64,000 nucleotides of DNA. It comes from Escherichia coli (lineage in GTDB: Bacteria > Pseudomonadota > Gammaproteobacteria > Enterobacterales > Enterobacteriaceae). The notes beneath the pieces were generated by a model that had not been told where the DNA came from, ran no database searches, and was given only the letters and a program-made list of their open reading frames with translations. The translations under genes and the position numbers were made by a program. Position 1 is the first letter of the stretch. Each line of letters begins with the position of its first letter. This document shows positions 1 to 323 of the stretch, piece after piece. Where the stretch lies: the NCBI RefSeq assembly GCF_003334785.1, contig NZ_QOWV01000006.1; one strand, given 5' to 3'.

Positions 1-98
1 TTATCGTGAGAGTAATTCATCGGCACGTTAAATCATATCAGGCGTAATACCACAACCCTTAAGTTAGCGCTTATGGGGTTTACCCACGCCTTTCCGTT

Positions 99-323
99 AT
101 GCATGGGGCGGTCAAATATCTCGGCTACGCTGATGAACACAGTGCAGAGCCTGATCAGGTGATCCTTATCGAAGCGGGGCAGTTTGCGGTGTTCCCTCCA
201 GAAAAGTGGCACAACATTGAAGCCATGACTGACGATACTTATTTCAACATTGACTTCTTCGTGGCTCCTGAAGTCCTGATGGAAGGTGCGCAACAACGGA
301 AAGTCATTCATAACGGGAAATGA
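99..323 (+). CDS. yeaR: YeaR-like DUF1971 protein, C-terminal 74 codons; the same frame has TAA stops at 45-47 and 60-62, so the 5-prime part is missing or disrupted in this window
   Basis: Track ORF 99..323; remembered similarity to E. coli YeaR; upstream stops verified by hand translation. Confidence 0.6.
   Translation: MHGAVKYLGYADEHSAEPDQVILIEAGQFAVFPPEKWHNIEAMTDDTYFNIDFFVAPEVLMEGAQQRKVIHNGK

Follow-up and report, generated by a model that had tools for sequence, protein, structure and literature searches.

The window analysed here is a stretch of 64,000 nucleotides of Escherichia coli DNA (contig NZ_QOWV01000006.1), and its first lines raise the question of why a yeaR gene should begin there in the middle of its coding sequence. 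The list of open reading frames (ORFs) includes a frame of 74 codons that runs on the + strand from an ATG at 99 to a TGA at 321..323 (MHGAVKYLGY...VIHNGK). The original prediction, made from the letters alone, read this frame as the C-terminal part of a YeaR-like DUF1971 protein with a length of about 119 aa. Both statements hold against E. coli K-12 MG1655, whose YeaR (b1797; 360 nt) has 119 aa and in which the ATG at 99 is the internal Met46. Translation of the start of the window gives TAA codons at 45-47 and 60-62 in the same frame and stops at 7/13 and 29/65 in the remaining two + frames; as had been noted, no + frame is open across 1..62. The yeaR gene is therefore split, and the 119-aa protein cannot be encoded here.

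The break itself does not fall at the ATG. The frame of ATG 99 is open back to 63, with the upstream in-frame translation ...*VSAYGVYPRLSVM, in which GVYPRLSV corresponds to YeaR residues 38-45; yeaR sequence proper, with 100% identity to MG1655, continues on the 5' side of the ATG as far as 75/76. When the window was compared to MG1655 by BLAST, the alignment spanned 75..5912 with 2 mismatches, which places the discontinuity at 75/76 and not at 99. The expectation that the 45 N-terminal codons would be missing was thus right for the ORF and too wide for the DNA, where codons 38-45 are still contiguous upstream of ATG 99. The disruption of yeaR suspected near 60-75 was located at this boundary, and RefSeq treats the gene as a split pseudogene. 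A reference yeaR identical to the window over 1-98 had been named as the finding that would make ATG 99 the real start; MG1655 aligns from 75 onward only. It had also been asked whether the upstream sequence is derived from an insertion sequence (IS) or a phage, and 1..75 proved to be the end of IS186. The features of this region are collected in Table 1.

Table 1. Features at the start of the window, with window coordinates
Feature	Coordinates	Strand	Basis
Right-hand end of IS186 (IS421), rest upstream of the window	1..75	-	100% identity to MG1655 IS186A
Transposase gene insL, first 20 nt, leading leftward out of the window	1..20	-	Reverse complement ATGAATTACTCTCACGATAA = MNYSHD
23-bp terminal inverted repeat of IS186, CAACCCTTAAGTTAGCGCTTATG	53..75	.	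Exact reverse complement of the left end CATAAGCGCTAACTTAAGGGTTG
yeaR 3' fragment (codons 38-119 + stop), pseudogene	75..323	+	100% identity to MG1655 yeaR
Right copy of the 10-bp target-site duplication GGGTTTACCC	76..85	.	Same 10 bp before the left IS end
74-codon ORF from internal Met46 of YeaR	99..323	+	ORF list, MG1655 comparison
yoaG, second gene of the yeaR-yoaG operon, intact	327..509	+	ORF; DUF1869 yoaG annotation in all related loci

An uninterrupted yeaR of 119 codons was not found: the IS separates residues 1-37 from the rest. With an unbroken run of codons 38-119 only, and with stops ahead of it in each + frame, the gene was filed as a yeaR pseudogene fragment and not as a functional yeaR. 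In all matching genomes RefSeq labels the 5' piece as 'missing C-terminus' and the 3' piece as 'incomplete; missing N-terminus'. The fragment matches the Pfam DUF1971 model (PF09313) with E=4e-14 and 52.8 bits, query residues 1-59 covering positions 24-80 of the 80 in the model. DUF1971 is kin to the N-terminal domain of TehB. Compared to an intact YeaR, the window contiguously encodes only this part of the model, so that the fragment, identical to MG1655 over residues 38-119, belongs to the family as a pseudogene remnant and not as a functional member. No NCBIfam model captured the YeaR fragment or YoaG; the only match was a weak, sub-threshold one of the YeaR fragment to the TehB model (28.8 bits against a cutoff of 303). 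Within 20 nt upstream of ATG 99 (TTTACCCACGCCTTTCCGTT) no Shine-Dalgarno-like sequence was found, and for this reason the ORF starting at Met46 is not expected to be meaningfully translated and probably yields no functional product. The ORF list also holds an ATG-initiated ORF of 152 aa at 33..491 on the - strand, antisense to yoaG and the yeaR fragment. As this frame spans the insertion junction, it corresponds to no ancestral gene and was taken as a mechanical ORF.

Many complete E. coli chromosomes match the first 1000 positions of the window at 100% identity and carry at this place a gene annotated as 'IS4-like element IS421 family transposase'. Since the window shows only 1..75 of the element, its length, its full repeats and its transposase were read in these matching genomes. 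In one locus with a junction identical to that of the window (L001), the element is identical to MG1655 IS186A at 1339 of 1339 positions. Its transposase of 370 aa, encoded at L001 2908..4020 on the - strand and ending at window position 20, is identical to MG1655 InsL1 and scores 133.3 bits against the NCBIfam IS4 family model NF033592 (cutoff 115). Perfect 23-bp inverted repeats were found at both IS ends in six carrier loci (L001, L002, L004, L005, L007 and L008), and where the IS is inverted relative to the window, the match of a genome to the window begins only at 53. Among the IS186 copies of E. coli K-12 (IS186A/B/C; synonym IS421; IS4 family), the element thus agrees with IS186A in its 1339 bp, repeats, transposase, 10-bp duplication and G/C-flanked target. 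While the element itself shows no difference from IS186A, the yeaR copy is an additional one, at a site that is empty in the MG1655 reference. The annotation of IS186A in MG1655 gives 1345 bp (15387..16731; L006 388..1732), compared to 1339 bp between the outer repeat ends. It takes in three target-duplication bases at each end, and published lengths and duplication sizes (a 6-7 bp core or 10-11 bp) therefore differ by convention.

The target site was reconstructed from the carriers. The sequence GGGTTTACCC flanks the IS on both sides in the same six loci, its left copy lying outside the window, and the duplication would count as 11 bp if G75 were assigned to the target rather than to the IS. 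Deleting the IS and one 10-bp copy from the carrier loci restores MG1655 yeaR exactly. The order in genomes that match the window without a difference over 25 kb is leuE, yeaR codons 1-40, the 1339-bp IS, the duplicated 10 bp and yeaR codons 38-119. The target in yeaR, GGGG(GTTTAC)CCAC at codons 37-42, agrees with seven of the eight flank bases of GGGG(N6)CCCC, the one mismatch falling in the 3' flank (CCAC). The same geometry is seen at IS186A of MG1655, with the target GGGG-ATCACT-CCCC and the 10-bp duplication GGATCACTCC. A target motif of 5'-GGGG(N6/N7)CCCC-3' was derived from 59 recovered IS186 sites, 7 of which were one or two flank bases off the motif, and its palindromic flanks permit IS186 insertion in either orientation (Lee et al. 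2016, PMC5009759).

The frequency of the junction was counted in 5,426 complete E. coli genomes, with window 1..150 as the query for the right junction. A base-for-base match was found in 255 genomes, so the junction of yeaR and IS is no chance feature, and the corresponding left junction was likewise found in 255. The equal counts argue for simple insertions in the carriers. In another 197 of the 5,426 genomes the IS occupies the same position, flanked by the same duplication, but points the other way. Altogether, the two orientations account for 452 carriers, or about 8% of complete genomes (roughly 1 in 12).

These carriers include K-12, B and wild flanking backgrounds. For instance, MG1655 has an empty site, and two strains that share its flanks without a difference carry the IS, K-12 Dam/Dcm in the window orientation and CV601 the other way round. 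The left flank of E. coli B (B-DidR) is more diverged, at 19 differences per 1100 bp, and here too the IS sits as in the window; in APEC E18005 the IS186 in yeaR is inverted relative to the window. Only the left flank of APEC E18005 was used, as the ungapped comparison of its right flank gives a meaningless 548 mismatches on account of an extra insertion downstream. Orientation and flank haplotype together define at least four independent insertion events among the 452 carriers, a number that is a lower bound. The yeaR site is a recurrent landing site of IS186, independently occupied in both orientations and in many lineages. In APEC E18005 (NZ_CP126946.1, L004 2768..4625) we also observed an IS200/IS605 tnpA pseudogene and an InsQ/TnpB-family gene between yoaG and yeaQ, and its yoaG is annotated as a longer gene of 64 aa that overlaps the yeaR stop.

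Taken as an explanation of the beheaded gene, insertion of IS186 in yeaR is very probably correct, and the first letter of the window would then lie 75 bp from the right-hand boundary of the element, which leaves in view the IS terminus, one copy of the duplication and the last two-thirds of yeaR. IS186, an IS4-family element with a DDE transposase, would have jumped into codons 38-41 of yeaR. The transposase would pick a G/C-rich target of the GGGG(N6)CCCC type and cut it in a staggered manner, repair of the staggered cut would leave the 10-bp duplication, and yeaR would become a null (pseudogene) allele. Beyond the edge of the window lie the left junction, the bulk of the IS and the yeaR 5' piece, and from the relatives with identical sequence we infer a simple insertion in the source genome. 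As the window starts 75 bp inside the IS and the far side of the element is unseen, the IS186 copy might alternatively have mediated a secondary rearrangement in the source genome, a deletion or inversion with another IS186, after which the far side would no longer be the yeaR 5' piece and leuE. Recombination mediated by IS elements occurs commonly in E. coli (PMC5009759), and up to 23 places per genome match the IS end. Such an event is nevertheless quite improbable here given the equal numbers of right and left junctions, and a simple insertion was found in all six carriers inspected, among them SHP24, whose sequence agrees 100% with that of the window across 25 kb.

The two remaining readings do without an insertion and have next to no probability. 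One holds that yeaR truly begins at ATG 99 as a 74-aa isoform behind an ordinary promoter region, in keeping with the clean ATG-to-stop ORF. It was rejected as contradicted by the sequence: this ATG is Met46 of a 119-aa protein in MG1655, yeaR identity continues in frame for eight codons further upstream before IS186 sequence takes over, no Shine-Dalgarno sequence precedes the ATG, the DUF1971 model is matched in part only and RefSeq calls a pseudogene. The other regards the junction as an assembly chimera or a sequencing artefact, since IS-type repeats are often misassembled. An artefact is hard to reconcile with the recurrence of the same junction across 255 genomes that were finished independently, with its left-hand counterpart and with the exact duplication of the target, and the junction has been confirmed experimentally in laboratory strains (PMC5009759, PMC6307192). 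An assembly chimera was rejected on the recurrence, the duplication and this confirmation. An IS186 insertion in yeaR is thus the reading adopted here.

The insertion also bears on the downstream gene. The start of yoaG lies 4 nt after the yeaR stop, and yeaQ then follows in annotated relatives. According to Lin et al. (2007), cited in PMC6307192, the genes of the yeaR-yoaG operon are transcribed together from a yeaR promoter controlled by NarL and NsrR. With 1.3 kb of IS lying between this nitrate/NO-responsive promoter and yoaG, the gene is probably uncoupled from it. A scan of the split locus with promoter and terminator consensus patterns found no sigma-70-like sites, including no outward promoter, and two terminator-like hairpins, one of them inside the IS, which is no more than in shuffled sequence. 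The latter hairpin (GCCGGAAAGGGAGCTCCGGC followed by TTTTTTATTA; L001 3290..3309, + strand) is antisense to the transposase and points in the direction of yeaR transcription. In the IS orientation of the window it could block read-through to yoaG, at a hairpin frequency no higher than that of shuffled sequence.

With respect to the genomic background, the first 25 kb of the window are 100% identical to the natural isolates SHP24 (swine faeces), JKHS016 (hospital wastewater) and HSP425 (human). SHP24, the closest genome, has the complete order of leuE, yeaR 5' fragment, IS186 and yeaR 3' fragment. Over the 5,838 bases aligned to MG1655 there are only two differences, A vs G at 2516 and C vs T at 3610. 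Judged by sequence, these comparisons show that the window comes from a close relative of K-12 and not from MG1655 itself. The difference at 2516 lies inside the yoaF ORF (2380..2634). Several genomes near-identical over the first 25 kb align in two pieces, with about 776 bp extra (the size of an IS1), and K-12 ET12567 has about 1338 extra bp (the size of an IS186) within the same 25 kb. At the level of alignment, these extra segments indicate further IS polymorphism in the region among relatives; the window itself lacks these insertions.

The yeaR::IS186 allele and the behaviour of the element are already described. Lee et al. (2016, PMC5009759) reported an extra IS186 inside yeaR in E. coli PFM2. 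Many MG1655 lines evolved in the laboratory acquired IS186 in this gene de novo, and a link to enrofloxacin exposure was proposed (Hoeksema et al. 2018, PMC6307192). The published alleles involve the same gene and the same IS, a likeness seen at the level of the gene. Among the occupied genomes of K-12 background that we examined, the insertion point is the same as in the window. In contrast to PFM2 and the evolved MG1655 lines, the window has a background like that of natural isolates. The known IS186 hot spots at the lon promoter (E. coli B; SaiSree et al. 2001), fimA and menC (Lee et al. 2016) are also recurrent, site-specific, used in either orientation and provided with GGGG(N6/7)CCCC-type targets. 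Compared to these, the yeaR target departs from the motif by one base on its 3' side, and the insertion at lon results in Lon deficiency.

The occupancy of about 8%, the presence of both orientations and the repeated de novo insertions in the laboratory raise the speculative and rather doubtful idea that high occupancy reflects selection for loss of YeaR or for an orientation-dependent rewiring of yoaG, which would make the site a recurrent adaptive switch. Candidate selective conditions could be fluoroquinolone exposure, following the suggestion of Hoeksema et al. (PMC6307192), and nitrosative stress.

For annotation, the truncated yeaR at the edge of the window is to be read as an IS186 insertion, and not as a new start codon or a sequence error. 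The strain is without functional YeaR, and the normal nitrate/NO-responsive control of yoaG is probably lost too. With about one in twelve complete genomes occupied, yeaR takes its place beside lon, fimA and menC as a natural IS186 hot spot.
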